DNA of 31,874 bases from a virus. Of the stretch, positions 60 to 16,494 are shown piece after piece; positions within the stretch are counted from its first letter, which is position 1; every line of letters starts with the position of its first letter. The notes below the pieces were generated by a model. That model did not search any database and had not been told where the DNA came from. It saw nothing but the letters and a program-made list of their open reading frames with translations. The translations under genes were made by a program, and so were the position numbers. The stretch covers positions 1-31,874 of IMG/VR virus record IMGVR_UViG_3300045988_165319, one strand, 5' to 3'.

Positions 60-68
60 TTATCCACA
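60..68 (+). promoter_or_regulatory. DnaA-box-like 9-mer TTATCCACA upstream of promoter P0
   Basis: Exact match to the E. coli DnaA box consensus TTATNCACA. Identical 9-mers lie at 8504-8512 and 10886-10894. Each sits 30-40 bp upstream of an early promoter -35. Confidence 0.45.
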
Positions 69-109
69 GGCAGATGTCATAATTACTATGTTTTATGTGT
101 GGTTAGGGC

Positions 110-137
110 TTGCGTTTACGGGGGGGCGCGGTATACT
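110..137 (+). promoter_or_regulatory. Early promoter P0 (TTGCGT-N16-TATACT) driving ORF 174-530
   Basis: TAGGGCTTGCGT -35 block shared with P1, P3 and P4, then -10 TATACT, then SD TAGGAGG 7 nt before the ATG at 174. Confidence 0.6.
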
Positions 138-173
138 AATAATGTCAAAAGTTAATAGTTAGGAGGTTTTGAC

Positions 174-530
174 ATGAGTTACTTTTATAAGTGGCGACCA
201 AGCGCCGGCGCCAAGCGGGAATTTGCTCAGAAAATGGCTGAGGTGGATGAATTCTGTCGGTTGCACAACATCGACCAGAGCAGTAGTAGTGATAGTTACT
301 ATTTTACTCTAAACAATAAGCGCTATCGGGTGTCAAATCACACCCGTGAGGCTAGTAACGCCAAGGCGTATGATGTGTTTACTGGTGAGAAGCGGCGCGA
401 GTTCTACCACGACTTAAGCGACACTGAAGAGATTCAGATTTTCGCCGGTAAAACGCGAATTATTCAAATCTACAATGACTTGGTTGCCGGCTATGAGCTG
501 GATGGGCGTGGTCGGCGCAAAACTGCCTAG
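174..530 (+). CDS. Hypothetical 118-aa protein (moron-like, own promoter and terminator)
   Basis: ORF with good SD (AGGAGG-N7-ATG), preceded by P0 and followed by the intrinsic terminator inside DR-L. I recognise no domain. Confidence 0.5.
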   Translation: MSYFYKWRPSAGAKREFAQKMAEVDEFCRLHNIDQSSSSDSYYFTLNNKRYRVSNHTREASNAKAYDVFTGEKRREFYHDLSDTEEIQIFAGKTRIIQIYNDLVAGYELDGRGRRKTA

Positions 531-715
531 CCCCTCTCACCCCGCCCGTCTGGGCGGGGCTTCTTTACGCCCTTTATCTTATTATTGTGCGACATTAGGG
601 GTTAGCGTTAGGGCTATATGTTTATGTGTCTTTGCTTTTTATCGGGGCTTAGGCGGGCGCTGGTGCGGTCGTTTATCAGCATCGGTTAGGTGTCTTGTCA
701 AGGGCTACTACTGTT
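527..715 (+). repeat. 189-bp direct repeat, left copy (DR-L)
   Basis: Identical to 31587-31775 at an offset of 31060 bp, as far as I can read. It contains a hairpin terminator, the TTGTCAAGGG motif and the CTGGTGCGGTC 11-mer. Confidence 0.9.
540..570 (+). terminator. Rho-independent terminator (CCCCGCCC-GTCT-GGGCGGGG + T-rich tail) inside DR-L
   Basis: 8-bp GC-rich perfect stem, 4-nt loop, then CTTCTTTACGCCCTTTATCTT. It lies immediately after the stop of ORF 174-530. The same hairpin occurs in DR-R at 31600-31630. Confidence 0.7.
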
Positions 716-1597
716 GGTCTTCACCCGGGCGTCAATGCTGTTTTTTCTCACATGGGCGTGGCGGTTGCGCTTGGCTAGCAGTTGCCCTAGTTTAGTTGCG
801 CCATCCGGCGCTTGTCGGCGTTTTAGTTCTGTCATCTGGCTTAGAATATTGCCCAGCTCTTTTGTTAATAGTGCCGTATCTCTAGCGCCCACCCCTCGCT
901 GTAGCTGATTAGCTATCCGGTCTCTCATTGCCTCGAGCACTTTCATCTGCCCGCCCTCTTCTTTAGCTAGAGCAACAATATCCACTTTGTCAACGTCCTT
1001 AAGCCCGGCTTGGTATATCTTGTCCATGCGGTACGGGTGCGTGATGATGTCGTGCCAGCGACGCAAAGCGGCCTCAGCCTCGACGTTCAGCATGCCTGTC
1101 TGCAAGATGAGCTTGAGGCGAGCGCTTGGCATCGTCTTGAAGTATGCGAGCCAGTCGTCATATGTGGCGACGTCGGCGTCAAGTAGGCTGATGTTGTAGT
1201 TGGTCTCGAGCCATTGCTGGCATAGCAGTTGTAGCTCCTTTTGGCTCAGTTGGCACACCGCCTCGACGAGCTGTTCATACGATATCGGCTCATCAGGCTT
1301 ATGCTCCACATTGGTGGCTTTTGGTTTAGTTTCATCAGGCTTATGCTCTGTGATAGAGAGTTTATCGATACCCGTAATAAGCCCACTGCCCGCTAGCCCT
1401 AATACAAGCCCTATATGCCAAGAGATGCCGAGGTTTATTCCGATAGCTACCCCGATAGAGGCAGAGGCTAAAATTGTAATAGCCGACTCGATATCATTCT
1501 TAGCGCATCGTTTAATAAACTCCGTTGCCCCTATACAAGCAATTGTTATTGTTGCAATAGCGATTGCCGGTGTCTGCTTTAGTATTTCGCTTATCAT
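698..1597 (-). CDS. Holin-like membrane protein with a large C-terminal extension (299 aa)
   Basis: The N-terminal ~75 aa carry three hydrophobic helices. The gene lies directly downstream of the endolysin. The C-terminal 220 aa are unassigned. The last codons run into DR-L. Confidence 0.45.
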   Translation of the reverse strand: MISEILKQTPAIAIATITIACIGATEFIKRCAKNDIESAITILASASIGVAIGINLGISWHIGLVLGLAGSGLITGIDKLSITEHKPDETKPKATNVEHKPDEPISYEQLVEAVCQLSQKELQLLCQQWLETNYNISLLDADVATYDDWLAYFKTMPSARLKLILQTGMLNVEAEAALRRWHDIITHPYRMDKIYQAGLKDVDKVDIVALAKEEGGQMKVLEAMRDRIANQLQRGVGARDTALLTKELGNILSQMTELKRRQAPDGATKLGQLLAKRNRHAHVRKNSIDARVKTNSSSP

Positions 1598-1612
1598 CTT
1601 GTTGCCCTCCTT

Positions 1613-2290
1613 TTAGTTACAATGCCCGAATATAATCTGACCGTCTAGTGTTCGTCTAGCGATATAGCGCCAGTTACCGCTATTAGCCTTATAAACTACC
1701 CAGCGATAGCCGTTAGTGTCTATGTAGCCTTGATAATTCACTGATTGTCCTCGGTTGTAGGTGGCTACTACGTTGTTGCCGTTAGTATCAGGATTACTCC
1801 TCACCCTCAGCCCATCCACTTCTACATGGAATGTCCCATTTTGAGAGATTACCCCATTTGGCAGGTCTTGCCGTGGAGCTTGAGCCACTGGACGCTCCAC
1901 CACCCACTTATCCAAGGATGCTAGTTGCATACATTGCCCGATTGGGCGAGTGCCTTCGGTAGTGATTAGGGGGCGTTGCCCGTTTTGCTCAAAGTTGGTC
2001 TCACCTCTTAAGTCAATCCAGACGTGTCCATAACCATTGCCCATATTGCTGTTTGAGCATACTCTTAGCCAGCCATCGCCACGTTGCGCTACCCCGTCGG
2101 CTACATATGCGTTAATGACGCTTTTGGCGTTACCTCTTGCTTTCCAGGGGTTAGGTGCGCCGAGATAGTTTAAGAGTGCTTTTATCAGAGCAACACACTG
2201 ACCGTCCAGGTCATGATTGCTTTCATCCTTTACCTTCTTGCCGACCTGGTTTCTCAGCCAAGCTCTGACTTCAGCTTTACTGCGTGACAT
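1613..2290 (-). CDS. Endolysin: N-terminal CHAP peptidase/amidase domain plus C-terminal SH3b cell-wall-binding domain
   Basis: Catalytic Cys (DLDGQCVALIKAL) and His (GYGHVWIDL) are spaced as in CHAP domains. The C-terminal YRWVVYKANSGNWRYIARRTL is an SH3b-like fold motif. SD AAAGGAG lies 8 nt upstream. Confidence 0.7.
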   Translation of the reverse strand: MSRSKAEVRAWLRNQVGKKVKDESNHDLDGQCVALIKALLNYLGAPNPWKARGNAKSVINAYVADGVAQRGDGWLRVCSNSNMGNGYGHVWIDLRGETNFEQNGQRPLITTEGTRPIGQCMQLASLDKWVVERPVAQAPRQDLPNGVISQNGTFHVEVDGLRVRSNPDTNGNNVVATYNRGQSVNYQGYIDTNGYRWVVYKANSGNWRYIARRTLDGQIIFGHCN

Positions 2291-2328
2291 TCTGCCCTCT
2301 CCTTTCTCTTCTCGAGTTGTTTTCTTTC

Positions 2329-2336
2329 ATTATACA
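2329..2336 (-). promoter_or_regulatory. Late-type -10 (TGTATAAT) upstream of the endolysin
   Basis: Minus strand reads GGTGTATAATG about 40 nt upstream of the lysin ATG. It is a one-T-shorter variant of the TGTTATAAT late promoter family. Confidence 0.4.
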
Positions 2337-3619
2337 CCAGCCGGGGTATTCTCCTGCCAGCCCGTTTCGTCGTCATTGTTTCTAAACTTCCACCACCGCT
2401 TACGTATCACATCTACATATTCAGGTGATAGTTCAGCTCCATAACATGTTCGACCTATTTGTTCGCAAGCCATCAAGGTTGATCCACTGCCGAGGAATGG
2501 GTCTAGCACTAGCTCATTGGATTGAGTGCTGTTATTGACCAGATATGCCATTAGCCCGACGGGCTTCATGGTGGGGTGGTCGAGCGATTTATTCGGCTTA
2601 TCGTGTTTGATAACCGTCTGCGGTAGTGTTTCCAGCATCCCTTTTAGCAGAGCCCTCAAGGCGTCTGCGCTCATTGAGTCGATATCGTCTATCTTGTCAT
2701 ATACGGTTGTAAGCGAGCGGTCGGCGATGAAGTAGTGCGATGCCCCCTCCTTAAACCCGTAAATAATCGGCTCATGCCGATAGTGGTAATCGTTGTGCGA
2801 TAGTACTAAGTGATTTTTGACCCAGACCAGGTCTTGAGTGATGTGCAACCCAACGTTCGCCGTTATAGCTTGCCTCACTTCTCTTGCCATCGACGAAGCG
2901 TAAAACACATAGAATGCTCCGCCGAGCTTGAGGTGATTGTTCGCCTCACTAAAGGCTTGCTTCAAAAACGCCTCCAGTTTTTCACTATCAACCTGGTCAT
3001 TGTCAATACTCACCTTTTTAGCTTTACCGACATAGCCGACGCCATAGGGCGGGTCGGTGAGCAATAGGTCGGCTCGCTGTCCGTCCATTAGCTTATCGAT
3101 AATGGTGTGGTCGGTACTATCGCCACATATCACCCTATGTCGCCCCAGCATGTACACTTCGCCAGGCTTACTGACGGGTGCTTCAGTCGATACTGTCGGT
3201 GGAGCGTCTTCAATAATCTCTACCTCTCCCTGGTCTGGCATATCGGGAATATCCAGCCCCCAGTCCTCCAAGGTCGCCACGTCCCAGCTGTTACTTAACT
3301 CATCCCAGTCCCAGTCGCCATAGGGCAGGTTATCCTTTACGATAAACTCTTTCTTCTGCTCTTCAGTTAGCCCCGTTACTTGGACAACCTCTATATCTTC
3401 ATAGCCGAGCTGTTTCAGCGCTCGATAGCGCATATTACCACCCAGGATGATATTGTCCTCGTCGACGATGATTGGGCGTATGCCCGTCATTTCGGGGAAC
3501 TCTCGGATGCTTTTGACCAGCTTAGCTAATTTATCTTTAGTGATGTGACGTGGGTTATTCTTGTTTAACTTGACGTCTTTCAGCCTCAGTCGAATAGTCT
3601 GTTTAGTGAACTTAGCCAC
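2330..3619 (-). CDS. ParB-like nuclease domain fused to a beta-class DNA methyltransferase (N6A/N4C type)
   Basis: The N-terminus has a ParB N-domain pattern (IRPIIVDEDNIILGGNMRYRALKQLG). The MTase part has motif IV (LLLTDPPYG) before motif I (LVLDPFLGSGST), i.e. a beta-class order. GTG start with SD AAAGGAG. Confidence 0.75.
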   Translation of the reverse strand: MAKFTKQTIRLRLKDVKLNKNNPRHITKDKLAKLVKSIREFPEMTGIRPIIVDEDNIILGGNMRYRALKQLGYEDIEVVQVTGLTEEQKKEFIVKDNLPYGDWDWDELSNSWDVATLEDWGLDIPDMPDQGEVEIIEDAPPTVSTEAPVSKPGEVYMLGRHRVICGDSTDHTIIDKLMDGQRADLLLTDPPYGVGYVGKAKKVSIDNDQVDSEKLEAFLKQAFSEANNHLKLGGAFYVFYASSMAREVRQAITANVGLHITQDLVWVKNHLVLSHNDYHYRHEPIIYGFKEGASHYFIADRSLTTVYDKIDDIDSMSADALRALLKGMLETLPQTVIKHDKPNKSLDHPTMKPVGLMAYLVNNSTQSNELVLDPFLGSGSTLMACEQIGRTCYGAELSPEYVDVIRKRWWKFRNNDDETGWQENTPAGV

Positions 3620-3644
3620 CCTTGCTCCTTTCTTAGTTACGGTT

Positions 3645-3653
3645 ATTATAGCA
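3645..3653 (-). promoter_or_regulatory. Extended -10 promoter (TGCTATAAT) for the MTase/lysis minus block
   Basis: Minus strand reads GGGTGCTATAATAACC about 25 nt upstream of the GTG start. It has the TGn extension typical of Gram-positive promoters. Confidence 0.5.
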
Positions 3654-3803
3654 CCCTCTCTTATAAAAGGTAAGAGCCCCGCCGGGTGGGAGGCGAGGCT
3701 TCTTGAAAGGAGACACTCTCATGACAACAGGCGTTGCAATGATGAGTAGTGATTAGAGAATATGCGACCCTAATCACGTTAGTATTATATCGCAAAACAA
3801 GGT

Positions 3804-3870
3804 GGCTAGGCTATTGTGCCTTGGCTCAAACCCAGAAAACCAAGGCGATACAGACAACAATAGCCTAGCC
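3804..3870 (+). other. Long nested stem-loop in the non-coding region (14-bp outer stem, 6-bp inner stem)
   Basis: GGCTAGGCTATTGT at 3804-3817 pairs with ACAATAGCCTAGCC at 3857-3870. The inner stem is CCTTGG/CCAAGG around a 15-nt loop. It is not a tRNA cloverleaf. Confidence 0.5.
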
Positions 3871-4001
3871 TTAAACGTGCGAGCACAGCAACTGTAGATT
3901 ACACAACTATCTGAATGTATGTGGTGACATGTAGTAGAACGAGACAAGCTGTTACGGTGCTATGGCTTCATGTTATCAAGTCACGTTATTTAAGTAAATA
4001 A

Positions 4002-4030
4002 CTATACCCCGGCGTGGAGCCGGGGTATAG
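4002..4030 (+). other. Perfect 12-bp hairpin CTATACCCCGGC-GTGGA-GCCGGGGTATAG
   Basis: Perfect inverted repeat with a 5-nt loop. On the minus strand it is followed by a T-rich stretch (TTATTTACTT). It belongs to the TATACCCC...GGGGTATA hairpin family also seen at 4920-4946 and 5039-5067. Confidence 0.5.
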
Positions 4031-4134
4031 AAGTTAGAAGGTGTGTACCCTACACGGATACCTTTAATGAAAGTATCACGGTGGCGGTTTATTGGCAAGC
4101 TATTTATTGATGTATTTATTACCTATCATAGGGC

Positions 4135-4163
4135 TTGCGTTTTCATATGAGGTTATATATAAT
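4135..4163 (+). promoter_or_regulatory. Early promoter P1 (TTGCGT-N17-TATAAT) with the conserved leader
   Basis: TAGGGCTTGCGT -35 block, 17-nt spacer, perfect TATAAT, then the conserved leader ATCATCAAATGAAAGGAGGAATGATGAG. Confidence 0.7.
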
Positions 4164-4189
4164 AACCATATCATCAAATGAAAGGAGGA

Positions 4190-4909
4190 ATGATGAGAGT
4201 TAATGAAAACCTAAGGAATGCTATCAGCCGAGTAGCTGACTATGAGTGCCTAAAACGAATTGAGGGCGAGGTAATCGGTTATTACCTCATGAAGGGCTAC
4301 ACCGTGCTACATAATAGCGTGGTCATCGATGAGGTGCTGAAGCCTAGCGATGAGGTCAAGCGACTGTTTAAGCGGGCGGGCATAGATGCTAGCGACGATG
4401 CTTATTGGGCGTTACTGGACATGCTTGATAAAGAACGTATTGCCGTTAAGATATGGCGCAAGCGTAACGGTCGGCTTACTTTAAGCAACACGATTGACAC
4501 TATGATTGCTTATCTTACCTGGCAGGATTTAGCCGGGGCGGTCACGCAGGATGATAACGACGAGGTCGTTTACGCCAAGTGCGAACGTGGCGTGCGAGCT
4601 ATGCACTATCTGCCTTACTGGGACGAGCTGGTGGCTGATGCTAAGGCTAAGGCTCACGAGAAGTTAGACAGAGAGTGTCGAGCAGTGGGCGAGAATAATT
4701 TATTGCCCGAACAAAAGCGAGTGATTTTCAGTCTAGCTCTGACCGATGCGCTTTACGATAACGTTTGCCGTAACGTCCTATATCTCAAAGAAAGTGAGAC
4801 TGTTTCGGTGGCTGATTACGAGTTTGGCTCTGCTTCGGCGCTGAGCGATATTGTCAGTAGTATTATCGGACACGAGATGAACATCGTTGCTGATGATATG
4901 GTGTTTTAG
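4190..4909 (+). CDS. Hypothetical protein (~239 aa)
   Basis: The ORF track starts at 4178 (MKGGMM), but that ATG lies inside the SD. Likely starts are the ATGATG at 4190 or 4193, downstream of AAAGGAGG. No domain recognised. Confidence 0.55.
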   Translation: MMRVNENLRNAISRVADYECLKRIEGEVIGYYLMKGYTVLHNSVVIDEVLKPSDEVKRLFKRAGIDASDDAYWALLDMLDKERIAVKIWRKRNGRLTLSNTIDTMIAYLTWQDLAGAVTQDDNDEVVYAKCERGVRAMHYLPYWDELVADAKAKAHEKLDRECRAVGENNLLPEQKRVIFSLALTDALYDNVCRNVLYLKESETVSVADYEFGSASALSDIVSSIIGHEMNIVADDMVF

Positions 4910-4919
4910 GGTAGTAAAA

Positions 4920-4946
4920 ATAGCCCTTCTGATTTAGAGGGGCTAT
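4920..4946 (+). other. Hairpin ATAGCCCTTCT-GATTT-AGAGGGGCTAT just after the stop of gene 4190-4909
   Basis: 11-bp stem with one G:U pair. An A-run precedes it and no U-run follows on the plus strand. Possibly a weak terminator or an RNA stability element. Confidence 0.4.
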
Positions 4947-5038
4947 CCCAGCCGGGCGACGTATTTACAATACGCTTAGTCATTCGACCGCTTACGGCTG
5001 TGCAACAGTACTTACGTCTGTAATATCACAATAATAAA

Positions 5039-5067
5039 TATACCCCTTCTAATCAAGAAGAGGTATA
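5039..5067 (+). other. Hairpin TATACCCCTTCT-AATCA-AGAAGAGGTATA upstream of gene 5107
   Basis: 12-bp stem with one mismatch. It shares TATACCCC/GGGGTATA-type arms with the hairpins at 4002 and 4920. Confidence 0.4.
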
Positions 5068-5106
5068 CTATAGGTGCGAGTCATCTAATTTTGAAAGGAG
5101 ATCATT

Positions 5107-5424
5107 ATGACCGCAGATCAAAATACACCTGGTTTTATTGTACCAGATGTAGGTGAGAAGTCAAGATTTCATGTTGATACTTTCGACTCCACCATTCTTT
5201 ACGACAATTATCTAACAAGTAACCAGAAAGTTGTCTATTTCTATTATTGCCAGCACGACCAGATTAGCGAGACGGCTGAGCAAGTCGCCAGTTTTCTTTA
5301 TTTAGGCGTCAGCACCGTAAAAGAGGCATGGCGTCGGCTCGAGGAGGATGGTTATTTGAAACTTATTGAGAAAAGAGGGCGAGTGCGTACGTACGTCGCC
5401 ATTTTTAAGTGCGGGCTATGGTAA
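5107..5424 (+). CDS. Small winged-helix-like DNA-binding protein (105 aa), possibly replication-associated
   Basis: SD GAAAGGAG 7 nt upstream. SETAEQVASFLYLGVSTVKEAWRRLEEDGYL resembles an HTH/wHTH segment. It sits immediately upstream of the initiator gene. Confidence 0.45.
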   Translation: MTADQNTPGFIVPDVGEKSRFHVDTFDSTILYDNYLTSNQKVVYFYYCQHDQISETAEQVASFLYLGVSTVKEAWRRLEEDGYLKLIEKRGRVRTYVAIFKCGLW

Positions 5425-5441
5425 AGAATAAGGAGGGTAAT

Positions 5442-6500
5442 ATGTCAAGCCAAAATAAGCAAAACTATCTATTAACGCCACAATCGCTTTTTGCGTGTGA
5501 TAAGTTCAGCTTAGCCGAGAAGGTGGTATTGGCTAGGGCGATGAGTTTCGGTAATCATCGCTATTACGAGTCGGTCGAGAAGACAGCATCGTTCTTGGGT
5601 ATAAGCGAGTCGGCAGTTGAAAAGGCGAGGGCTAAGTTTATCAAGCTAGGCTACTTTAAGAAGGTCGGCTATAGCAACAATAGGGTAGTTTATGAAGTAT
5701 GTGACGACATTATTGAGAAAGATTGTCAAGTGAGAAGAATTACAAAGAATGACATTTCTTTTTGTCCGAAACAATCGCAGAATGTGCAACCAACAATCGC
5801 AGAATGTGCGATTTCTCAAAACGATACATATATATATAATAATAAAGAAGATAATAAAGATATAACCCCCCTAAACCCCCCCATGGGGGGTTGTGTGGGG
5901 CAAAAAGACAAAAATGATGAAAAAGGAGAGGTTGACAACATATTTAATTTATGGCTTAGCTGTTTTGGGCTTTCGGAGCGTAAATTGACGCCCGGTCGGC
6001 AAACGAAGATTAGGCGACGTTTGAAGGATTGCGGTAAAGACCAGCTGGAGCTGGCTATCCGCAACGCTAGCCAGGACTACTTCTACCGTGGCGACAATGA
6101 CCGTGGCTGGCAGGCGGACATCGACTACATCTGCCGTTCAGCCGAGATTGTCGAACGATTAGCAAACATGACACCTAGGAGTGAACGCCCTATGACCTGG
6201 TGGGAAGAGAAGCAACAACGTGAGCTTGAGCAGTGCGCTCCCCGCTACGGCGGGTCGGAGCGGGGGTATACCGTGGCGGAAGAGGACGACGACCTGGTTA
6301 TTGCCTCCCCCGACTCTGCTCCCAATCCCGATGCTAAACCGACACCCGAGAAAACAGATAAGCCAGATCAGGATGAAGCTCCTGTCCCGCTGGACATGGA
6401 TGAGCTAAGGAAGCGATTTCTAGAGGGTAAAGCCAGGGCTATCAAGAGAAGGGATGAGGCTTTGAGCAACGATGAGGCGAGAACGAAGGTTGGCTTATGA
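5442..6500 (+). CDS. Replication initiator / phage replisome organizer (N-terminal wHTH plus C-terminal DnaD-like conserved phage C-terminus)
   Basis: Likely start is the ATG at 5442, with AAGGAGGG 6 nt upstream (the track start at 5409 lacks an SD). The N-terminus LAEKVVLARAMSFGN...SFLGISESAVEKARAKFIKLGYF is wHTH-like. The C-terminus DNIFNLWLSCFG...LELAIRNASQDYFYRGDNDRGWQADIDYI matches the replisome-organizer C-terminal family. Iterons lie inside the gene. Confidence 0.65.
   Translation: MSSQNKQNYLLTPQSLFACDKFSLAEKVVLARAMSFGNHRYYESVEKTASFLGISESAVEKARAKFIKLGYFKKVGYSNNRVVYEVCDDIIEKDCQVRRITKNDISFCPKQSQNVQPTIAECAISQNDTYIYNNKEDNKDITPLNPPMGGCVGQKDKNDEKGEVDNIFNLWLSCFGLSERKLTPGRQTKIRRRLKDCGKDQLELAIRNASQDYFYRGDNDRGWQADIDYICRSAEIVERLANMTPRSERPMTWWEEKQQRELEQCAPRYGGSERGYTVAEEDDDLVIASPDSAPNPDAKPTPEKTDKPDQDEAPVPLDMDELRKRFLEGKARAIKRRDEALSNDEARTKVGL
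5771..5809 (+). promoter_or_regulatory. Iteron pair ACAATCGCAGAATGTGC x2 with 22-bp periodicity (putative origin inside the initiator gene)
   Basis: Two exact 17-mers at 5771-5787 and 5793-5809. They are followed by a ~55-bp AT-rich tract and the palindrome CCCCCCATGGGGGG. Confidence 0.55.
5877..5890. promoter_or_regulatory. Perfect 14-bp palindrome CCCCCCATGGGGGG next to the AT-rich tract (origin-associated)
   Basis: Read directly. It lies at the end of the AT-rich stretch 5815-5870. Confidence 0.5.
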
Positions 6501-6592
6501 CCACTAAAAACGCCACTAGACGCATTCTGAGGCACTTTCTAGCCGTTTTTATAGCCAAGATGGGTATTTACCCTACTTTGGGGCTAAAACGT

Positions 6593-6653
6593 CACACAGA
6601 GGCTCTGGTGCGGTCTGAGGGGGTGTTTTGTGGGAGGGTAGGTCTTAGCATTC
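6593..6653 (+). repeat. Conserved G-rich element, copy A (CACAGAGGCTCTGGTGCGGTCTGAGGGGGTGTTTTGTGGGAGGGTAGG)
   Basis: Near-identical copies at 15313-15364 and 31182-31229. The pseudo-ORFs translating as HTEALVRSEGVFCGR are by-products of this repeat. Confidence 0.85.
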
Positions 6654-6692
6654 ACGAGATTGCTTTTTGCCCGCCCCGAATTAGCTCGGGAT

Positions 6693-6721
6693 TTGACAAA
6701 GCGGTATCGTCTTGCTACAAT
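6693..6721 (+). promoter_or_regulatory. Early promoter P2 (TTGACA-N17-TACAAT) with the conserved leader
   Basis: Consensus -35, 17-nt spacer, TACAAT, then ATCATCAATGAAAGGAGGAATGATGAG. Confidence 0.7.
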
Positions 6722-6746
6722 CGCCGTATCATCAATGAAAGGAGGA

Positions 6747-7205
6747 ATGATGAGTAAAAATAAGGGCGTCGTCTATCAGTTGATAGCTTTCAATCGGCAG
6801 ACGAAGGAGGAAGTCGTGGTGGGCTACGGTAGTCTCAACGAGATTTGCGAGCTGATCTACACCGACTACAACTACGATGGGGAGATTACGCTGGCTGACG
6901 AGGATGCTTACGATGCCGTCGTCTCGGTTATTGAGGCGATCCGCAATTCATTGCCGACCGTGGGGCGTAAGGAGGGCGGTTATGACGTGCCGAGCGATAT
7001 CGTGGAAGACATACGGCAAAGCGTCGATGTTGCCGTTACGGACTACGTCGCTCACGCCCATAGGTTGCTGTCGGCTCGAAGTCGTCACCCTGAGCGCACT
7101 AAAGTAGAGCGGTTTAACCAGTACTTTGACAGGATGATAGCCGGCTTTAAGCTTTGTGAGGATAACCCGAGCCTTGTCCATGAGGAAGAAAAGTCGGGTG
7201 ACTAA
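6747..7205 (+). CDS. Hypothetical protein (~152 aa)
   Basis: Start at the ATGATG at 6747 or 6750, downstream of AAAGGAGG. The track start at 6660 is upstream of the promoter. Confidence 0.5.
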   Translation: MMSKNKGVVYQLIAFNRQTKEEVVVGYGSLNEICELIYTDYNYDGEITLADEDAYDAVVSVIEAIRNSLPTVGRKEGGYDVPSDIVEDIRQSVDVAVTDYVAHAHRLLSARSRHPERTKVERFNQYFDRMIAGFKLCEDNPSLVHEEEKSGD

Positions 7206-7668
7206 AGTGCCCATAGCCGGGTATATCGTCAAGTTGGACGATGGGGCTGAGGTGTCTCTGACCGCTCCGCTTGATTGCCGATCTAATCGGTCAAGCCTAA
7301 ATAGCGTTTTACGTCGCTATCTCGCCAAGAACTATCCGGGGCTCCGCTCTTCGGCGACTGACTACCAGGTGGTTATCGATGTGGAGGCGACGGCTAAGAA
7401 GGTCGAGGAATTGGTAACCTATCGGCTACGTCGGCAGGGCTTTACGGTCAAGCGGGAGGCTAGTGTCGGCGGTGTGGTCTTGGACTATTACAAGCCCGCC
7501 GACAAGAATAAACCGACTGGACACCACCGTTTCGATCCGCTATATGCCACCTATCACACTGTTTGGGGTGTAGATGGAGTGGAGTGCGGTAGGGTCTGCT
7601 ACGACATGGACGGCGGTAAGCATGGCGAGGTATTCGTCGACCCTGTTTATTTAGAGGATATTTACTAA
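7156..7668 (+). CDS. Hypothetical protein; start uncertain (alternative starts at 7180 ATG or 7198 GTG)
   Basis: Long ORF that overlaps the previous gene by 50 nt if started at 7156. AGGAAG lies 9 nt before the GTG at 7198. Confidence 0.4.
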   Translation: MRITRALSMRKKSRVTKVPIAGYIVKLDDGAEVSLTAPLDCRSNRSSLNSVLRRYLAKNYPGLRSSATDYQVVIDVEATAKKVEELVTYRLRRQGFTVKREASVGGVVLDYYKPADKNKPTGHHRFDPLYATYHTVWGVDGVECGRVCYDMDGGKHGEVFVDPVYLEDIY

Positions 7669-7681
7669 GAAAGGAGAAGAC

Positions 7682-7876
7682 ATGAAAGATAAAGTGAAAG
7701 CCAAGTGTAAAGAGATAATGGCTAAATTAAAGAGCAATAAAGTCAATGGGGCGGTCAAGGTTGGGCTGGCTATCTATTTAGCGTTTTGTGTGTTAGTGCT
7801 GGTGCTCGGTTGCGTGATTTTAGCGCAATCTATCGGCTTTATGAAGGCTATCTTGATGCCGTGGCGTCGGCGGTAG
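7682..7876 (+). CDS. Small membrane protein (64 aa, one TM helix)
   Basis: SD AAAGGAGAAG 4 nt upstream. Hydrophobic segment VGLAIYLAFCVLVLVLGCVILA. Confidence 0.5.
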   Translation: MKDKVKAKCKEIMAKLKSNKVNGAVKVGLAIYLAFCVLVLVLGCVILAQSIGFMKAILMPWRRR

Positions 7877-7897
7877 TTTGAGGGAGAGGAGGTTATT

Positions 7898-8518
7898 ATG
7901 CAGACACCTGAAGGAAGAGCTAAAGCGCTCAAAACGATGAGGGAGCGTTACGGCGATGATTACTTTAAGCGAGTAGGTCGGCTCGGCGGTTCGAGCTATC
8001 ACTCCAAGCCCCGTGGCTTCGCTTCCGACCCTGAGCAGGCTCGGATAGCGGGGCGCAAGGGCGGAGCTAAGTCACGTCGTCAACGTGATAGTGCATATAT
8101 CCTGCCAGGCTCGTTAGACAGCGAGACAGTGCGACGGATCATGTGGCAGGCGATTAGTCAAAATCGGTCGCTTTATAAGTCGATTAAGTCCATTAACGCT
8201 GACATGTTTAGCGCCTCAAAGAATGATATCGTTTGGGTGACTGAAGATGTGGTGCGTGAATACGTGGGGTGGACGGTTAGCCCAAATAGCATTATTAAAC
8301 AGGGCGTGCTTCGACATGGGGTGGATAAGCCTGTCGTCTACTGGTATCGGGTGATATGTGCCCACGACATCAAGAATAGTAATATCAATATCATCCTAAT
8401 ACTGAACATTGGCGACACTACTTATTCGCTTTATTGGGACGTTACCACCGAGCGCCCCGCCCGTCTGGGGCGAGCTAAAGACATTAAGTGCGCTGAGACT
8501 GAGTTATCCACACCTTGA
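7898..8518 (+). CDS. Protein with an N-terminal KGG-repeat (stress-protein-like) domain (206 aa)
   Basis: The N-terminus ERYGDDYFKRVGRLGG...GFASDPEQARIAGRKGGAKS is paralogous to the 77-aa protein at 22911-23144. SD GGAGAGGAGG. The last codons ELSTP lie inside the repeated promoter module. Confidence 0.55.
   Translation: MQTPEGRAKALKTMRERYGDDYFKRVGRLGGSSYHSKPRGFASDPEQARIAGRKGGAKSRRQRDSAYILPGSLDSETVRRIMWQAISQNRSLYKSIKSINADMFSASKNDIVWVTEDVVREYVGWTVSPNSIIKQGVLRHGVDKPVVYWYRVICAHDIKNSNINIILILNIGDTTYSLYWDVTTERPARLGRAKDIKCAETELSTP
8504..8512 (+). promoter_or_regulatory. DnaA-box-like TTATCCACA upstream of P3
   Basis: Exact 9-mer read directly. Confidence 0.45.
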
Positions 8519-8543
8519 TGTAAATGTGGCTATGCTATAGGGC

Positions 8544-8572
8544 TTGCGTCTTGGGGTGGGGTGAGATATAGT
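8544..8572 (+). promoter_or_regulatory. Early promoter P3 (TTGCGT-N17-TATAGT) with the conserved leader
   Basis: The segment 8500-8570 is about 90% identical to 10882-10952. Confidence 0.65.
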
Positions 8573-8598
8573 GTGTGTATCATCAAATGAAAGGAGGA

Positions 8599-8775
8599 AT
8601 GATGAGAAGCAGTAAACTCAACTTTCACCGAGTTGGGGGACGGGTGGTTATCGAGCGAGACGATGATTACTTTCTGAAGTCCGACATTGTCGGCTTAAAG
8701 ATTAGCCTGGGGCTGATAATTGCGCTGTTTGCGCCATTAGCTATCCATGCTGTCGGGGCGTTGTTCGTGGAGTAA
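8599..8775 (+). CDS. Small membrane protein (~58 aa)
   Basis: ATGATG start after AAAGGAGG. Hydrophobic C-terminal helix GLIIALFAPLAIHAVGALFV. Confidence 0.5.
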   Translation: MMRSSKLNFHRVGGRVVIERDDDYFLKSDIVGLKISLGLIIALFAPLAIHAVGALFVE

Positions 8776-9065
8776 TGTGTATGTGTAGCGGTTTACTTAA
8801 AGAGGAGGGCTTACGAGTAAAAGCAACAAGAAGGTTAGCCAAGCTACCCAAGCCAAGTTGGCTGTCACAGGTAGCCGGCTATCTCGGTTCAAGATTTACT
8901 TTGAAGCAACATAGAGGGAAGTCTCGTCGGACAAAGCGGGAGATTGAGCGTCGGCACAAAGTCTTTGACGATACTCGCCCTCATGACGATATGGACGATT
9001 TAATCAGGGCGTTGGAGTTTGAGAACTTTATGCGTGATGATTATGTCAAAGAAGGTAGTCGGTGA
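8775..9065 (+). CDS. Hypothetical basic protein (96 aa)
   Basis: ORF with start/stop overlap (TAATG) to its neighbours, typical of translational coupling. Confidence 0.45.
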   Translation: MCMCSGLLKEEGLRVKATRRLAKLPKPSWLSQVAGYLGSRFTLKQHRGKSRRTKREIERRHKVFDDTRPHDDMDDLIRALEFENFMRDDYVKEGSR

Positions 9066-9358
9066 TTGGTAAGCTCGAGCCTGTCGTTCATCTTGAAGAT
9101 GGGAAGGAGGTAGTGGCTTGGCGCTGGCGGAAGAAGTACTTCAGCAAGCGGTCGCCCGGTTCACCTTACCGACATGGCGGGAGCTGGTTTACTCTGTCGA
9201 GCGACTCGGGTGGCTCGTGGATGGCTTGGCAGGATGTGCCTAGTCGGAGCGAAGACGGACAAATAATGTACTCGGAGGGGTCGCAACCCGTTACCACCGC
9301 CGAATACGAGAAGTTAGATAAAATGCTCGCCGAACGTATGGGCGGAGCAGGGAGGTAA
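9062..9358 (+). CDS. Hypothetical protein (98 aa)
   Basis: Overlapping start (GTGA), tightly packed. Confidence 0.45.
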   Translation: MIGKLEPVVHLEDGKEVVAWRWRKKYFSKRSPGSPYRHGGSWFTLSSDSGGSWMAWQDVPSRSEDGQIMYSEGSQPVTTAEYEKLDKMLAERMGGAGR

Positions 9359-9363
9359 ATAGT

Positions 9364-9708
9364 ATGAAAATGACAATGACAATCGATGGCAATAAGGGGC
9401 TATCGAGCCTGGCTGACATGATTAGTGATACGGCGAGGCTTGGGATAGCTGTCGTCACTATAAACGCCATGGCAGAGGCTAGTTGCGATAACTATTCTGA
9501 CCAGAGCGCCACATTTCACGAGGGGATGCTGGCGGTAGCCACCGAGATGGTTATTTATGGCGGGTTAGTCTATGACGCCCTTATTCACGCTGAGATGAAG
9601 GCTGTCGCCGATAACTTTCTGAAGGAGCTGAACGACCTGCGTAAAACCCAAGCTAAATATAGTGAGATGCATAAAAAGGCTCTCCGAGAAGCAAAGGAGG
9701 AGCAGTAG
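9364..9708 (+). CDS. Hypothetical protein (114 aa)
   Basis: SD GGAGCAGGGAGG upstream. Confidence 0.5.
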   Translation: MKMTMTIDGNKGLSSLADMISDTARLGIAVVTINAMAEASCDNYSDQSATFHEGMLAVATEMVIYGGLVYDALIHAEMKAVADNFLKELNDLRKTQAKYSEMHKKALREAKEEQ

Positions 9709-9710
9709 TC

Positions 9711-10091
9711 ATGGAAGCTGATTTGAAGGTAGCGATGTTTGACGAGTCGGTGACTAGTAAGATTAGAGAGCTGGCGTCGAGTGCGCTTAAAACATGGCTA
9801 AAGAAAGTTGGCGATGACAAGTCGGACAATCAATGGTATATCGAGAAGTGCCTGCGCCAAGTCATGGCTCACTCGGACTGGGTTGGGATAAATACAGCCG
9901 ACACTTTTCACGATTTTAAGAAGTGTAATATCGATTATGTTGATATTGCCGACAATGTAGCCGGGGTCGAGTCGGCGAATACGCCCTACTATCTCGTTAT
10001 CTTCAATATCGACGACAGTCGCTACGTTGCTCGCTTCAGCTTAGCGGGTGGGGTGATGGTCGACGAGCGGATGGACTTAGGAGACGACTAG
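9711..10091 (+). CDS. Hypothetical protein (126 aa)
   Basis: SD AAGGAGGAG upstream. Confidence 0.5.
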   Translation: MEADLKVAMFDESVTSKIRELASSALKTWLKKVGDDKSDNQWYIEKCLRQVMAHSDWVGINTADTFHDFKKCNIDYVDIADNVAGVESANTPYYLVIFNIDDSRYVARFSLAGGVMVDERMDLGDD

Positions 10092-10474
10092 TGGCGTCGG
10101 TACGCTCCTCCAATATCAAGTTTGCCTCGGATAGGCTGGCTAACGATGAGATGAGTATCATTGTACGGCGTCGGATAGCTCAATGCATGGACGCTGTCGA
10201 TAACTGGTGGTCAATCAACTATAAACGCCTAAAACGTAACGAGTTTTACGAGACTACCGAGACATTGCAGGAGCTGGTCAAGTCACATCGCCCTATCGGT
10301 CTGGTTGGCGAGATGATTTACAAGGCTAGGTCTGATGTTGAGTATATGGGCGTAATCAGCACAGCCTGGCTAGTTGAGGGGTATGTGTCCCATTCGGGAC
10401 ATTCCCTCTCCAGGTTGCAATGGATTGTGGTTGATGTTGGTAAGTATCGCTACTACTGCTCGCACTACTTCTAG
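10091..10474 (+). CDS. Hypothetical protein (127 aa)
   Basis: GTG/ATG overlap start. The gene fills the gap. Confidence 0.45.
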   Translation: MASVRSSNIKFASDRLANDEMSIIVRRRIAQCMDAVDNWWSINYKRLKRNEFYETTETLQELVKSHRPIGLVGEMIYKARSDVEYMGVISTAWLVEGYVSHSGHSLSRLQWIVVDVGKYRYYCSHYF

Positions 10475-10489
10475 TAGTATCATGGTGAT

Positions 10490-10900
10490 ATGAATGATGA
10501 CGATTTTGCTAAGCCGACAGACGGCATCCTGGGTGACGGGGTGCTGTCTTTTCGGTTAGCCCAGCTTTATGTTGGTGAGCCTAGGTATCACTGGGTCTAT
10601 CGCAACTATCTGGATCGCTTTACCCTATATCCTGTCGCTAGTGACAAATATCGAGGGCTACTGATTGTGCAGGTGGGCTTTGGGCGGGTGAGGCTACGGA
10701 CTCGAACGGGGGCGTGGGCTACCGAGCGATTGCGCCATATATCGATAGCTTGCGCTAAGCTACATAGTCACTTCAATTACGCTGTAGCTATCGTTACTAC
10801 TGCCGAAGACGCCAAGGCTATCTATCAATCATATGTTGACGGGACGAGCTATATCGATAACTTGACGGCTAATGCCTGCGGTGAGTTATCCACAGCTTGA
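10490..10900 (+). CDS. Hypothetical protein (136 aa)
   Basis: The ORF ends with ELSTA inside the repeated promoter module, paralleling the ELSTP ending of 7898-8518. Confidence 0.5.
   Translation: MNDDDFAKPTDGILGDGVLSFRLAQLYVGEPRYHWVYRNYLDRFTLYPVASDKYRGLLIVQVGFGRVRLRTRTGAWATERLRHISIACAKLHSHFNYAVAIVTTAEDAKAIYQSYVDGTSYIDNLTANACGELSTA
10886..10894 (+). promoter_or_regulatory. DnaA-box-like TTATCCACA upstream of P4
   Basis: Exact 9-mer read directly. Confidence 0.45.
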
Positions 10901-10925
10901 TGTAAATGTGGCTATGCTATAGGGC

Positions 10926-10954
10926 TTGCGTCTTAAGGTGGGGTGAGGTATGAT
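10926..10954 (+). promoter_or_regulatory. Early promoter P4 (TTGCGT-N17-TATGAT) with the conserved leader
   Basis: Same module as P3. Leader is TATCGTCAATGAAAGGAGGAATGATGAG. Confidence 0.65.
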
Positions 10955-10979
10955 ACTTGTATCGTCAATGAAAGGAGGA

Positions 10980-11330
10980 ATGATGAGTGAAAATAAGGAC
11001 AGTGGCGACATGGAGCAACTGCTCATAGCGATGAGTGCTACGTGCACGTTGCTGGAATGTGCAATAGCTGATCATAGCAACAATCATAGCCTGGTAGGGA
11101 TGTGCGCCATAGCTAACGAGCTTCAATGTCACGCCCGTGCTGTCTATAAGGCACTTACTATGGACAAAGTGGGCAAGTCGAACAGTGGGAGATTTAGCCT
11201 CGAGGAGAGTATTGACGAGCTGGAGGAGTTGATAACCGAGGCTGAGGCGTCAATGCTTATGAATAAGCTCGTGGATGGATGTAGGGCGATGTCCGGCGCC
11301 GGTGAGTCGAAGGACGATGATGGCGAGTAA
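10980..11330 (+). CDS. Hypothetical acidic protein (~116 aa)
   Basis: ATGATG start after AAAGGAGG. The C-terminus is Asp/Glu-rich. Confidence 0.5.
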   Translation: MMSENKDSGDMEQLLIAMSATCTLLECAIADHSNNHSLVGMCAIANELQCHARAVYKALTMDKVGKSNSGRFSLEESIDELEELITEAEASMLMNKLVDGCRAMSGAGESKDDDGE

Positions 11331-15251: not shown

Positions 15252-15280
15252 TCCGAGATATTTTATCGCTTTATTGTTAA

Positions 15281-15310
15281 AGATGAGTATATACTCATCT
15301 TTTTATTTAT
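15281..15310. terminator. Bidirectional intrinsic terminator between the convergent early and late blocks
   Basis: 20-nt perfect palindrome AGATGAGTATATACTCATCT followed by TTTTTATTTAT on the plus strand and TTTAACAATAAAG on the minus strand. Confidence 0.7.
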
Positions 15311-15312
15311 CA

Positions 15313-15364
15313 CGTCACACAGAGGCTCTGGTGCGGTCTGAGGGGGTGTTTTGTGGGAGGGGTG
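15313..15364 (+). repeat. Conserved G-rich element, copy B, between the terminator and the HNH gene stop
   Basis: CACGTCACACAGAGGCTCTGGTGCGGTCTGAGGGGGTGTTTTGTGGGAGGGG. See copies A and C. Confidence 0.85.
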
Positions 15365-15365
15365 G

Positions 15366-15698
15366 TTACCAGGCGTTACTTAGCGGTATAGGGCAATCCG
15401 AGTTTAACTCCATGTGGTCGCTGTCCATTCGCTTGCCTTTGCGCCGATTACACCTAAAGCACAGCGTCTGTAGGTTCGATATTTCATACGGTGCACCACC
15501 TCTAGCTAGCGGTACGATGTGATCTATTTCGACGGCTTGGGCGGTACAGCGAGGGGCATTCTTGTCAAGCGGTTTACCGCATATGGCGCAATGAATATCG
15601 TCGCCCGCTAGGTCAAGCACCCTCTTGCGAGCCTTCTCCCACGCATCAGGGTTCCACATTGTACCATCGGGCAGGACGTGCCATCTATGTTTAGGCAT
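15366..15698 (-). CDS. HNH endonuclease
   Basis: CAICGKPL...EIDHIVPLARGG...NLQTLCFRCNRRKG is a classic HNH Cys-box/His-Asn-His pattern. It is the last gene of the late block. Confidence 0.8.
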   Translation of the reverse strand: MPKHRWHVLPDGTMWNPDAWEKARKRVLDLAGDDIHCAICGKPLDKNAPRCTAQAVEIDHIVPLARGGAPYEISNLQTLCFRCNRRKGKRMDSDHMELNSDCPIPLSNAW

Positions 15699-16036
15699 TA
15701 GTTTAACCTCCTTACTTCAAAATTAACTCTACCAAAATAAACGATGTGGATTGCTATCTTGTTGTTATTGTCAAAGCCTCCTATGGCGCCGTAAATGTAG
15801 CAGTGATTGGCTTCGTCATAGTACTTATCCAGCGCCCCCGCTACAGACAGCACATCCGACGTCTTCGGTTCTACCAGGGTAGCTATAACCTCGCAATGGG
15901 CTTGGGTTGGCAGGTTGTATGAATAACTCTTCAGCCTGAGGGCATCCGCTCCATAGTACTGATCCGACTTGCTGTCGTCGGCGTCGGCTTTCAGGGTGGC
16001 GACCATATCCGGGAAGAAGTGGCGACTATCTCTCAT
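15698..16036 (-). CDS. Hypothetical protein (112 aa), distal tail region
   Basis: Translationally coupled to the upstream gene. No domain recognised. Confidence 0.45.
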   Translation of the reverse strand: MRDSRHFFPDMVATLKADADDSKSDQYYGADALRLKSYSYNLPTQAHCEVIATLVEPKTSDVLSVAGALDKYYDEANHCYIYGAIGGFDNNNKIAIHIVYFGRVNFEVRRLN

Positions 16037-16038
16037 AG

Positions 16039-16494
16039 CTAAGCTATCCTCTCAATATTGTACGACACTTGGCTGGTGGTAGCTATCCTGAATGATACGA
16101 AGTAACGGTTCTGAGCTAAGTCTGATAGCCACACATACCATGTATCTCTGCTTGGGTCATTCATCAGGATACGGCTTGCCGACATGCCGTAATCGTTGTA
16201 GTTACCGTTAACCAGCATGGTACGACGATTGCCTCCCAGGTCGGTGACGATAGGGGTTAGGTTACTGATGAACATATTCCCCTTCTCGAGCTTAGTGGGG
16301 GTGATAGTTATCTTAAAGATAGCTAGCCCTCGATATGAGCCGGGTTGCGATGATAGCCCCACCTCTTGCTTGGGGGTCGTTACCGATTTGGATATGACCT
16401 GGTTATCACCGATAAACTGAGTATTCTTCGACTCGTTGTTATCGGTTATTAGGTCGGCTACCGTTTCGGTTATCGATGTGGTTGGCTGGCGCAT
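16039..16494 (-). CDS. Putative receptor-binding / tail-fibre protein, paralog B (151 aa)
   Basis: The N-terminal 14 aa (MRQPTTSITETVADL) are near-identical to the neighbouring gene. The C-terminus differs. It is positioned downstream of Tal. Confidence 0.45.
   Translation of the reverse strand: MRQPTTSITETVADLITDNNESKNTQFIGDNQVISKSVTTPKQEVGLSSQPGSYRGLAIFKITITPTKLEKGNMFISNLTPIVTDLGGNRRTMLVNGNYNDYGMSASRILMNDPSRDTWYVWLSDLAQNRYFVSFRIATTSQVSYNIERIA

Follow-up and report, generated by a model that had tools for sequence, protein, structure and literature searches.

Candidate promoter-leader modules with an upstream DnaA-box consensus 9-mer in the viral record IMGVR_UViG_3300045988_165319 and its relatives

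Families of near-identical early promoters are known from the virulent phages T4, T5, T7 (A1-A3), SPO1 and SPP1 (PE), and class I activator-dependent promoters have CRP sites at -61.5, -71.5 and -82.5. Stabilising leaders with a 5'-terminal stem-loop or a strong Shine-Dalgarno (SD) sequence are found in E. coli ompA, B. subtilis aprE, ermC, the SP82 early RNA and the STAB-SD of cryIIIA. Start-associated sequences (SAS) and extended SAS have been described in Cluster K mycobacteriophages (Pope et al. 2011, PMC3203893). In phage lambda, DnaA binds consensus-like 9-mers near the promoters pR and pO, modulates transcription and contacts RNA polymerase (PMC3985674; Szalewska-Palasz, Wegrzyn and colleagues). 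Here we describe five candidate promoter-leader modules, P0 to P4, in the IMG/VR virus record IMGVR_UViG_3300045988_165319. The whole stretch of 31,874 nt that was analyzed is called the window below. Three of the modules are preceded by the 9-mer TTATCCACA, the exact DnaA-box consensus.

The modules are probably host-type expression modules, each joining a promoter and a leader, with an upstream site linked to the promoter. They would be portable units read by the host RNA polymerase, one in each sizeable gap but one of the plus-strand non-structural region (P1-P4), and P0 would be a fifth module driving a variable accessory-gene cassette. Each would consist of an upstream 9-mer in one orientation, a -35/-10 core, and a leader whose stem presents a maximal SD sequence in its loop and covers the start codon or codons with its 3' arm. 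The near-identical modules would double as substrates for homologous recombination, which would swap and homogenise promoters, leaders and cargo genes. The window was compared with about 10 related genomes of 87-92% nucleotide identity (L002/L080, L081, L084, L085, L087, L088, L102, L103 and L104), recovered by exact-pattern scans and protein look-ups. P1, P2, P3 and P4 were kept at orthologous positions in all of these close relatives, and the conserved family of promoter-like and leader elements that the first-pass annotation of the window had proposed in front of the sense-strand non-structural gene blocks was upheld. Two more lineages were found. One consists of 39-40 kb podovirus-like genomes (L105, L107 and L090-L101; the 40-kb phages below) with an SU10-type portal and adaptor, a GroEL homologue, RecT/YqaJ and RNA ligase/PNKP, and the other is L106, the replication protein of which is 33% identical.

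First, the core promoters were considered. Searches of the window proteins with Pfam and PHROGs turned up neither a sigma factor nor an RNA polymerase, an integrase or a repressor; by default, transcription is therefore ascribed to the polymerase of the host. The -35 block TAGGGCTTGCGT was present in four exact copies, at 104, 4129, 8538 and 10920, all on the plus strand, a count reached by no shuffle. The coordinates, -35 block, spacers and -10 hexamers given for P0-P4 in the first-pass annotation were all found as described (Table 1). P2, which had been called a consensus promoter there, was the top match of the promoter scan in the region, with 11 of 12 consensus positions, and its -10 hexamer was conserved in the relatives, with the variants TACGAT and TACCAT. 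The TTGCGT promoters P0, P1, P3 and P4 had only 8-9 of 12 consensus matches; the scan did not list P1, P3 and P4, and it called P0 in another register (115-143). The consensus score of these four is low, and their promoter status rests on position and conservation. The -10 hexamers of P0-P4 match the consensus at 5-6 of 6 positions, with spacers of 16 or 17 nt.

The main argument for promoter identity came from the geometry of the modules. In every module of the window and the relatives, the -35 and -10 hexamers were 16-18 nt apart whatever the sequence of the spacer, and this length was held even where the spacer sequence was wholly replaced, as between P1 of the window and P1 of L080 and L081. 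Every module also had 6 nt between the -10 hexamer and the first base of the conserved leader, a purine 7 nt after the -10, either A (in AUCAUCA) or G (in GUCAAAA and GCGAA). This constant geometry corresponds to the fixed start site predicted by a sigma-70-type promoter. At the -35 site, the homologous modules of the 40-kb phages read CTTGACA or CTTGACT. Four of the five larger plus-strand intergenic gaps contained a module (6500-6747, 8518-8599, 10900-10980 and the gap upstream of 4190), and the fifth, 4909-5107, contained a minus-strand DUF3800-I RNA instead. From their sequence, we read P0-P4 as sigma-70-type promoters of an ordinary kind, with a weak -35 in P0, P1, P3 and P4.

Table 1. 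Positions of the module parts and of the main gene blocks in the window.
Feature	Position	Strand	Details
P0 box TTATCCACA	60-68	+	flank (T/G)AG-box-GG conserved; ends 75 nt before predicted +1
P0 second conserved block GATGTCATAAT	73-83	+	
P0 core promoter	104-137	+	TAGGGCTTGCGT 104-115; -35 hexamer 110-115; 16-nt spacer; -10 TATACT 132-137
P0-type leader	142-176	+	predicted +1 around G144; 5' arm AUGUCAAAA 142-150; SD AGGAGG 161-166 in loop; 3' arm UUUUGACAU 167-175
P1 core promoter	4129-4163	+	no box; -35 block 4129-4140; 17-nt spacer; -10 TATAAT 4158-4163
P1 promoter, hexamer span	4135-4163	+	-35 TTGCGT
P1 leader	4170-4197	+	predicted +1 A4170; UCAUCA 4171-4176; SD GAAAGGAGG 4180-4188; tandem AUGs 4190-4195; UGAUGA 4191-4196
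P2 promoter	6693-6721	+	TTGACA-17-TACAAT; TG before -10; no box, no TAGGGC block
P2 leader	6728-6754	+	predicted +1 A6728; UCAUCA 6729-6734; AUG AUG 6747-6752; UGAUGA 6748-6753; loop 1 nt shorter than in P1 and P3
P3 box TTATCCACA	8504-8512	+	four variable nt, then block 2 GATGTAAAT 8517-8525
P3 core promoter	8538-8572	+	hexamer span 8544-8572; -35 block 8538-8549; 17-nt spacer; -10 TATAGT 8567-8572
P3 leader	to 8606	+	predicted +1 A8579; UCAUCA 8580-8585; AUG AUG 8599-8604; UGAUGA 8600-8605
P4 box TTATCCACA	10886-10894	+	block 2 GATGTAAAT 10899-10907
P4 core promoter	10920-10954	+	hexamer span 10926-10954; -35 block 10920-10931; 17-nt spacer; -10 TATGAT 10949-10954
P4 leader	to 10987	+	predicted +1 A10961; UCGUCA 10962-10967 (G:U pair); AUG AUG 10980-10985; UGAUGA 10981-10986
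Scaffold, major capsid, portal, large terminase and tape-measure genes	15366-31066	-	
Methylase-endolysin block	698-3619	-	
O-like replication initiator and about 25 orphan genes	4.1 to 15.25 kb	+	

Two other patterns were tried and discarded. The loose pattern TAGGGCTTGCGT-N-TATNNT was found in 78 viral contigs, of which just one was related by BLAST, the others being chance matches. TAGGGCT was also rejected as a separate dispersed signal; it had 12 copies against 5.5 expected, and the surplus was made up of four modules and the two copies of the D1 repeat described below. On the opposite strand, all four TGNTATAAT (extended -10) sites of the genome (3645-3653, 21167-21175, 22902-22910 and 27869-27877) were located in intergenic gaps upstream of the methylase block, the tape-measure gene, a 186-aa gene and the portal gene. 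Two of these sites were inside a 34-nt repeat with 97% identity (21149-21182 and 27851-27884). The TGNTATAAT sites may form a second, late promoter class serving the minus-strand genes.

Next, the upstream 9-mer was examined. The three exact copies of TTATCCACA, at 60, 8504 and 10886, were all on the plus strand, 41 nt (P0) and 31 nt (P3 and P4) upstream of the -35. Three copies had been set against 0.24 expected by chance in the first-pass annotation, and the shuffles gave a mean of 0.20, with 0 of 100 reaching three or more. However, the surroundings of the box in P0, P3 and P4 were 68-71% identical, and the boxes are paralogous, the product of one or two evolutionary events rather than three independent ones, so that the statistics were overstated. 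P3 and P4 had 87 nt in common at 89% identity. The box stretch of P3 (8504-8525) overlapped the final ELSTP codons and the TGA stop (8516-8518) of a 206-aa gene, and that of P4 (10886-10907) overlapped the ELSTA codons and the TGA stop (10898-10900) of a 136-aa gene. This common stretch had been noticed before and explained by duplication of the gene ends together with the modules, an explanation that is probably not correct. The ends are encoded by the module, which contains a stop codon in each of the three frames (TGA 8500, TGA 8516 and TAG 8538, read from the sequence), and the upstream genes probably run into it.

The 9-mer was the sole block common to four diverged module classes. In 17 distinct contexts anchored on the box, from the clade of the window and the 40-kb phages, the 9-mer alone was conserved, and the next 4 nt were hypervariable. 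The box was non-coding in P0, in the 40-kb phages, where it directly follows a stop codon, and in L106, where terminators directly precede it; coding constraint on the ELST codons therefore cannot account for its conservation. In the 40-kb phages, where the motif was located by a scan with GAGTTATCCACANNNNGNTGTAAAT, it preceded a TTGACA or TTGACT promoter by 40 nt, and that promoter had yet another repeated leader. L106 had two copies of a terminator followed by GAGTTTTCCACAGG and then by TAGACA-N18-TGgTAAGAT or TGgTATATT. The box of the P0-type cassettes was exact in both copies of L081 and was TTTTCCACA in L084 and L102. In further relatives, covering 99 kb, 12 of the 15 matches to TTWTNCACA were sense-strand module boxes.

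The distance between the end of the box and the predicted +1 was also fixed, and the orientation of the box was the same throughout. The distance was 66 nt in every orthologue of P3 and P4, 75 nt in P0, in L083 and in the module classes 2a and 2c (the latter from the 40-kb phages), 76 nt in L081 and 55 nt in L106, and the 75-76 nt distance was held despite diverged intervening sequence. The box centres are thus near -60 (L106), -71 (P3 and P4) and -80/-81 (P0 type), about one helical turn apart. Conservation of the 9-mer at equivalent positions, on which the first-pass annotation had staked its proposal, was found in all close relatives and, at fixed and phased distances, in the two more distant lineages.

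It is a reasonable conjecture, to which we give a little less than even weight, that the 9-mer is the site of a trans-acting protein that would contact RNA polymerase in a class-I-like geometry, reaching it from a single helix face, and that host DnaA is the likeliest such protein, because the motif is its exact consensus. The presence of the box in three lineages sharing few genes, together with the lack of a recognisable phage regulator, favours a host factor. The site could instead be an operator or activator site for a protein other than DnaA, either a Saccharibacteria transcription factor or a phage protein of the shared early module, with a coincidental match to the DnaA box; this we consider somewhat unlikely. 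The flanks were indeed conserved past the 9-mer in most classes, (G/T)AG preceding the box and GG frequently following it. In the clade-1 and 2a modules, but not in L106, another block, semi-conserved and G-N-TGT-A/T-rich, followed 4 nt on, and the lineages do have the replication module and a few small basic proteins in common. However, the class 2c modules had a different 5' flank (GAT or GAA) and a different intervening sequence, which leaves only the 9-mer universal, and the most frequent variant, TTTTCCACA, falls within the relaxed DnaA consensus TTWTNCACA. Boxes with one mismatch, TTGTCCACA and TTATCAACA, were present too, in two 2a orthologues, and a candidate regulator was not recognised by Pfam or PHROGs.

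Several further observations concern the box. An inverted partial box, TGTGG, 3' of the 9-mer was rejected as part of a palindromic operator, as it was TGTTG in L084 and was absent in the 40-kb phages. The boxes were 2.7-5.7 kb from the putative origin, and a role in replication is therefore unlikely. The origin-like region, at about 5770-5880 inside the O-like replication gene, had two ACAATCGCAGAATGTGC iterons (near 5770-5810), an AT-rich tract and C- and G-runs, and no DnaA box. Box R4 of E. coli oriC with its flanks, which we take to be GAGTTATCCACAGTAGATC, is close to the GAGTTATCCACAGGTAGATG of P0; this likeness is no more than a lead. The designed mutant form of the box TTATCCACA is TTATGGTCA. 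Nothing usable was found in the literature on DnaA boxes of Saccharibacteria or on promoters of these phages.

The modules consist of separable parts, namely the box, the core promoter and the leader. Box, -35 block and leader A (the leader of P1-P4) were combined in P3 and P4, the block and leader A in P1, a consensus promoter and leader A in P2, and the box, block and leader B (the P0-type leader) in P0. Leader A stood without a promoter at L084:11634, and the box was combined with a TTGACA promoter and a third leader in the 40-kb phages. P1 of L080 and L081 had the -35 block and leader of P1 of the window, but a 17-nt spacer and -10 of the P3 type, of identical length. P4 of the window had a P2-type leader and first six codons, with 95% identity to P2 over 40 nt. 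An extra copy of the leader (the UCGUCA variant) was present without a promoter in L084 and L085, in a 44-nt intergenic gap 5' of an inserted 68-aa gene resembling helix-turn-helix genes. P0-type cassettes had their own conserved leader and unrelated cargo genes, and their number was 0 (L087), 1 (window, L084 and L102) or 2 in tandem (L081). We read these patterns as signatures of recombination and gene conversion between near-identical modules.

A 189-nt direct repeat, D1, was 100% identical in its two copies (527-715 and 31587-31775), which flank the (TAG)n tract and the P0 cassette and include the terminator CCCCGCCCGTCTGGGCGGGG. The D1-flanked P0 region behaves as a variable accessory-gene array, since the relatives have 0, 1 or 2 tandem cassettes with differing cargo. 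The (TAG)n microsatellite, at 1-55 and 31818-31874, had at least 18 units and formed both ends of the window. Related TAG/TGG/TTG triplet tracts were located 5' of the P0-type box in L081, L084 and L102. When viral contigs were searched with the cargo protein of P0, no relative was recovered, and one IMG/VR relative was without the P0 region, because its assembly breaks at repeats.

The modules could also be mainly recombination linkers kept alike by recent gene conversion, in which case the box would be just the outer edge of a duplicated unit without a binding function. Conversion and reassortment between modules are clearly evident, the homology between module classes starts at the box with unrelated sequence to its left, and both the cargo genes and the cassette number vary. 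However, the box persisted at exact distances where other upstream sequence had diverged beyond recognition, and in L106 it was present with a different promoter and leader, directly after terminators. This explanation is unlikely, and recombination and promoter function are compatible with each other in any case.

We then analyzed the leaders. The leader core ATGAAAGGAGGAATGATGAG was found four times, on the plus strand only (4178, 6735, 8587 and 10968), 1-4 nt before the AUGs. The leader up to the first AUG was 19-21 nt long in P1-P4 and about 30 nt long in P0. P1-P4 had been credited with the same 28-nt leader; the core was indeed common to all four, but the identity was interrupted by a 1-nt indel between P1/P3 and P2/P4. 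The leaders of P1 and P3 were identical over 29 nt, those of P2 and P4 were one A shorter (CAATG vs CAAATG), and that of P4 additionally carried an A>G change in the arm. The proposed pairing of UCAUCA with UGAUGA was confirmed as a perfect 6-bp complement and as the minimum-energy fold of all leader A variants, and the arm of P4, UCGUCA, preserved it by a G:U pair as had been suggested. The SD sequence of leader A was 9 nt long and perfectly complementary to the usual anti-SD. The remaining variation of leader A was limited to the 5' part of the loop.

Leader B had a 9-bp perfect stem, AUGUCAAAA/UUUUGACAU, which was the minimum-energy fold (-6.5 kcal/mol, z -2.9) and the 3' arm of which overlapped the AUG (174-176) of a 118-aa open reading frame (174-530). 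In L102 the leader B stem was GCGAA/UUCGC, starting 6 nt after the -10, with two compensatory pair changes (U-A to C-G and C-G to G-C). These changes were read by hand; the MAFFT alignment of leader B misplaces a 1-nt indel. Of the 60 SD-led starts in the window, 7 had a stem of 6 bp or more enclosing the SD sequence and reaching the start codon, and four of the seven were modules. In both leader families the stem began at the predicted +1, which suggests protection of the 5' end. The 5'-terminal stems may well serve mainly to protect the mRNA 5' end and to present the SD sequence, not to gate translation, a view to which we give almost even weight.

Control of translation through the hairpin, as proposed in the first-pass annotation, was not supported. 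The UCAUCA/UGAUGA hairpin would be an element that sequesters the tandem AUGs and gates the first protein of each block. Its stem was the minimum-energy fold in all variants and covered both AUGs, the sole substitution in the arm, A>G in two contexts, kept the pairing, and the second leader family had a like architecture with compensatory changes. However, the stem had only -3.3 to -5.4 kcal/mol against a 9-nt SD sequence, and in work on the MS2 coat gene, stems this weak reportedly did not measurably reduce initiation. Leader A showed no covariation, the homologous leaders of the other lineages were unstructured, and no trans-acting antisense partner for either leader was found in the genome, where only self matches were obtained. 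Rfam 15 gave no match at gathering score over the module leaders, its sole match in the window being the DUF3800-I RNA. Gating by the hairpin is thus quite unlikely; in our reading, the leader stems are real in the clade of the window, yet too weak to gate translation against a 9-nt SD sequence. An in-frame upstream AUG in the loop was rejected as a start, as it was TTG in several relatives and had no SD sequence.

The same inverted repeats could act as DNA. TCATCA-N13/14-TGATGA and GTCAAAA-N16-TTTTGAC are both perfect inverted repeats across the predicted start site, and as operators for a dimeric repressor they would cover +1 to about +30. However, the two palindromes were unrelated in sequence, the spacing of the half-sites varied (13, 14 and 16 nt), L102 altered both arms in an RNA-compatible manner, and no repressor-like gene was found among the window proteins. 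Such operators are very improbable.

Taken as host-type promoter-leader modules with a promoter-linked upstream site, the modules leave a number of points that weigh against this reading. At the -35, P2 matched TTGACA at 6 of 6 positions, but the TTGCGT of P0, P1, P3 and P4 matched at 3 of 6, with only TTG kept, and the TAGGGC next to TTGCGT is invariant without an explanation. All +1 positions are predictions by the rule of thumb of 7 nt after the -10. The helical-phase argument draws on three spacing classes, a pattern that would arise by chance with a probability of roughly 0.08, and the module classes are homologous, so that the spacing may be partly inherited and not selected. Because of the one-mismatch boxes in 2a, the box is conserved no better than its flanks within a clade. 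No promoter had more than one box, and the 2b modules, like P1 and P2, had none. The consensus represented by TTATCCACA may not be that of the DnaA of Saccharibacteria, and the host assignment itself rests on metagenomic binning. On the side of the leaders, the leader A stem was weak (z -1.1 to -2.4), none of its 8 distinct variants had a compensatory change (5 of 6 pairs were invariant and one A-U became G-U), and the leaders of the 40-kb phages and L106 did not fold. The label 'early', given to the family in the first-pass annotation, is not general either, because in one lineage the box-promoter precedes a small gene and then the terminase.

A more far-reaching reading, which we consider less likely than not, is that host DnaA, acting on a single consensus box one to three helical turns upstream of the -35, would directly tune non-structural and accessory genes in several unrelated lineages of Saccharibacteria phages and couple them to the replication and growth state of the host, an ultrasmall episymbiont, with a cassette moved between phage families by recombination. 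To our knowledge, nothing has been reported on transcription in phages of Saccharibacteria or of other candidate phyla radiation (CPR) bacteria, and their early genes are almost all orphans. The module family offers candidate host-type promoters, start sites and ribosome-binding leaders for Saccharibacteria phages, and the modules could be put to direct use as parts in new genetic tools for Saccharibacteria. The position-locked consensus box leads to a sharp hypothesis, that the phage reads the replication-initiation status of the host; if the box binds another protein, it would still mark a regulatory site that three phage lineages of the same host group have in common. A further point illustrated by the modules is how identical promoter-leader cassettes would drive mosaicism and the turnover of accessory genes. 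As such they are phage elements of an ordinary kind, and their most interesting part is the position-locked consensus DnaA box in three lineages.

The window, a siphovirus-like genome of about 31.8 kb that comes from human oral metagenomes, seems to be complete and circularly assembled, because the same (TAG)n tract is present at both ends. Twelve kb of it had zero nucleotide matches by megablast among 50,697 catalogued phages, and its portal had no more than 32% identity to portals of cultured phages. A 29.9-kb contig of a relative was binned in a metagenome-assembled genome of Candidatus Saccharibacteria. In its size, its oral habitat and its G+C content of about 49%, the window genome agrees with predicted Saccharibacteria phages (PMC9160773). 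From the binning of the relative and from genome size, oral origin and G+C content, the host is probably Candidatus Saccharibacteria. The 40-kb phages and the window have the replication module in common at about 89% nucleotide identity, plus several early genes, and only parts of the early region are common to the two. This sharing amounts to strong mosaicism between morphotypes, which presumably infect one host group.

Other features of the window were recorded as well. The DUF3800-I RNA (RF02969) at 4910-5028 on the minus strand scored 76 bits against a gathering score of 44. It separates the P1 gene from the gene that follows, is convergent with P1 and ends in a terminator-like hairpin at its 3' side; it was also found in L081, L084 and L087 (64-82 bits), and a DUF3800 protein gene was not evident nearby. 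The repeat D2 was present three times (6538-6643, 15261-15366 and 31124-31229), about 50 nt before P2, at the convergence point of early and late genes and upstream of the late operon, and it was conserved in relatives. It is made up of a terminator-like hairpin, the arms of which covary, and then a G-rich block, in which a 29-nt run, ACAGAGGCTCTGGTGCGGTCTGAGGGGGT, and 45 of 48 positions (through TTTTGTGGGAGGGTAGGT) were identical in the three copies; its minus strand is C-rich and resembles a Rho utilization (rut) site. A tandem palindrome, TTGACGTCATGACGTCAGG, conserved in L084 and L087, was found at 31328-31346, within the large intergenic stretch that precedes the late operon. A 92-nt direct repeat with 79% identity (16412-16503 and 16948-17039) extended across the starts of two adjacent minus-strand genes of 151 aa and 175 aa, which may be paralogues with a common N-terminus and upstream region. 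In the 500-nt divergent region between the methylase block and P1, an inverted repeat at 3799-3870 had arms of about 14 bp (GGCTAGGCTATTGT ... ACAATAGCCTAGCC), and near it, at 4002-4030, there was a strong hairpin resembling a bidirectional terminator.

Compared with the near-identical early promoter families of virulent phages, the modules are alike in that many promoters for the host RNA polymerase, with an extended conserved sequence, are arranged serially in one direction along the early region. However, the conserved unit here includes the whole leader and the first codons and is reassorted combinatorially with the 9-mer. The resemblance to class I promoters lies in a single site of fixed orientation upstream of an imperfect -35, at predicted positions about one helical turn apart, although the start sites are predicted here and the effect could equally be repression. 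Lambda likewise has consensus-like DnaA 9-mers near phage promoters, with binding in the modules being predicted only. In lambda, the boxes are downstream of the promoters and close to the origin, for transcriptional activation of ori-lambda, whereas those described here are upstream, at about -60, -71 and -80, 2.7-5.7 kb from the putative origin and at several promoters. The stabiliser leaders are similar in having a stem within 0-1 nt of the 5' end (predicted here) and a very strong SD sequence in a short leader. In contrast, the stems of the modules are 5-9 bp long, with -3 to -6.5 kcal/mol, the SD sequence is inside the loop and the 3' arm lies over the AUG.

The leader repeats also resemble the SAS of Cluster K. 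Both are short, asymmetric, near-identical repeats that contain an SD sequence and stand a few nucleotides before the starts of unrelated non-structural genes, in one orientation, and in both about half of the copies have an extra conserved upstream element, which is thought to bind a protein. However, the SAS consensus, GGGATAGGAGCCC, is unrelated to the GAAAGGAGGAATGATG of the modules, the host phylum is different, and the number of copies per genome is 4-5 here and 11-19 in Cluster K. Unlike SAS, most of the leader repeats here are continuous with a recognisable -35/-10 promoter, and they start at the predicted +1. As upstream element they have one 9-mer, at about -71 or -80, whereas that of Cluster K is a 17-bp inverted repeat adjoining the SAS. 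We therefore regard the leader repeats as an analogue of SAS and not as a member of that family.

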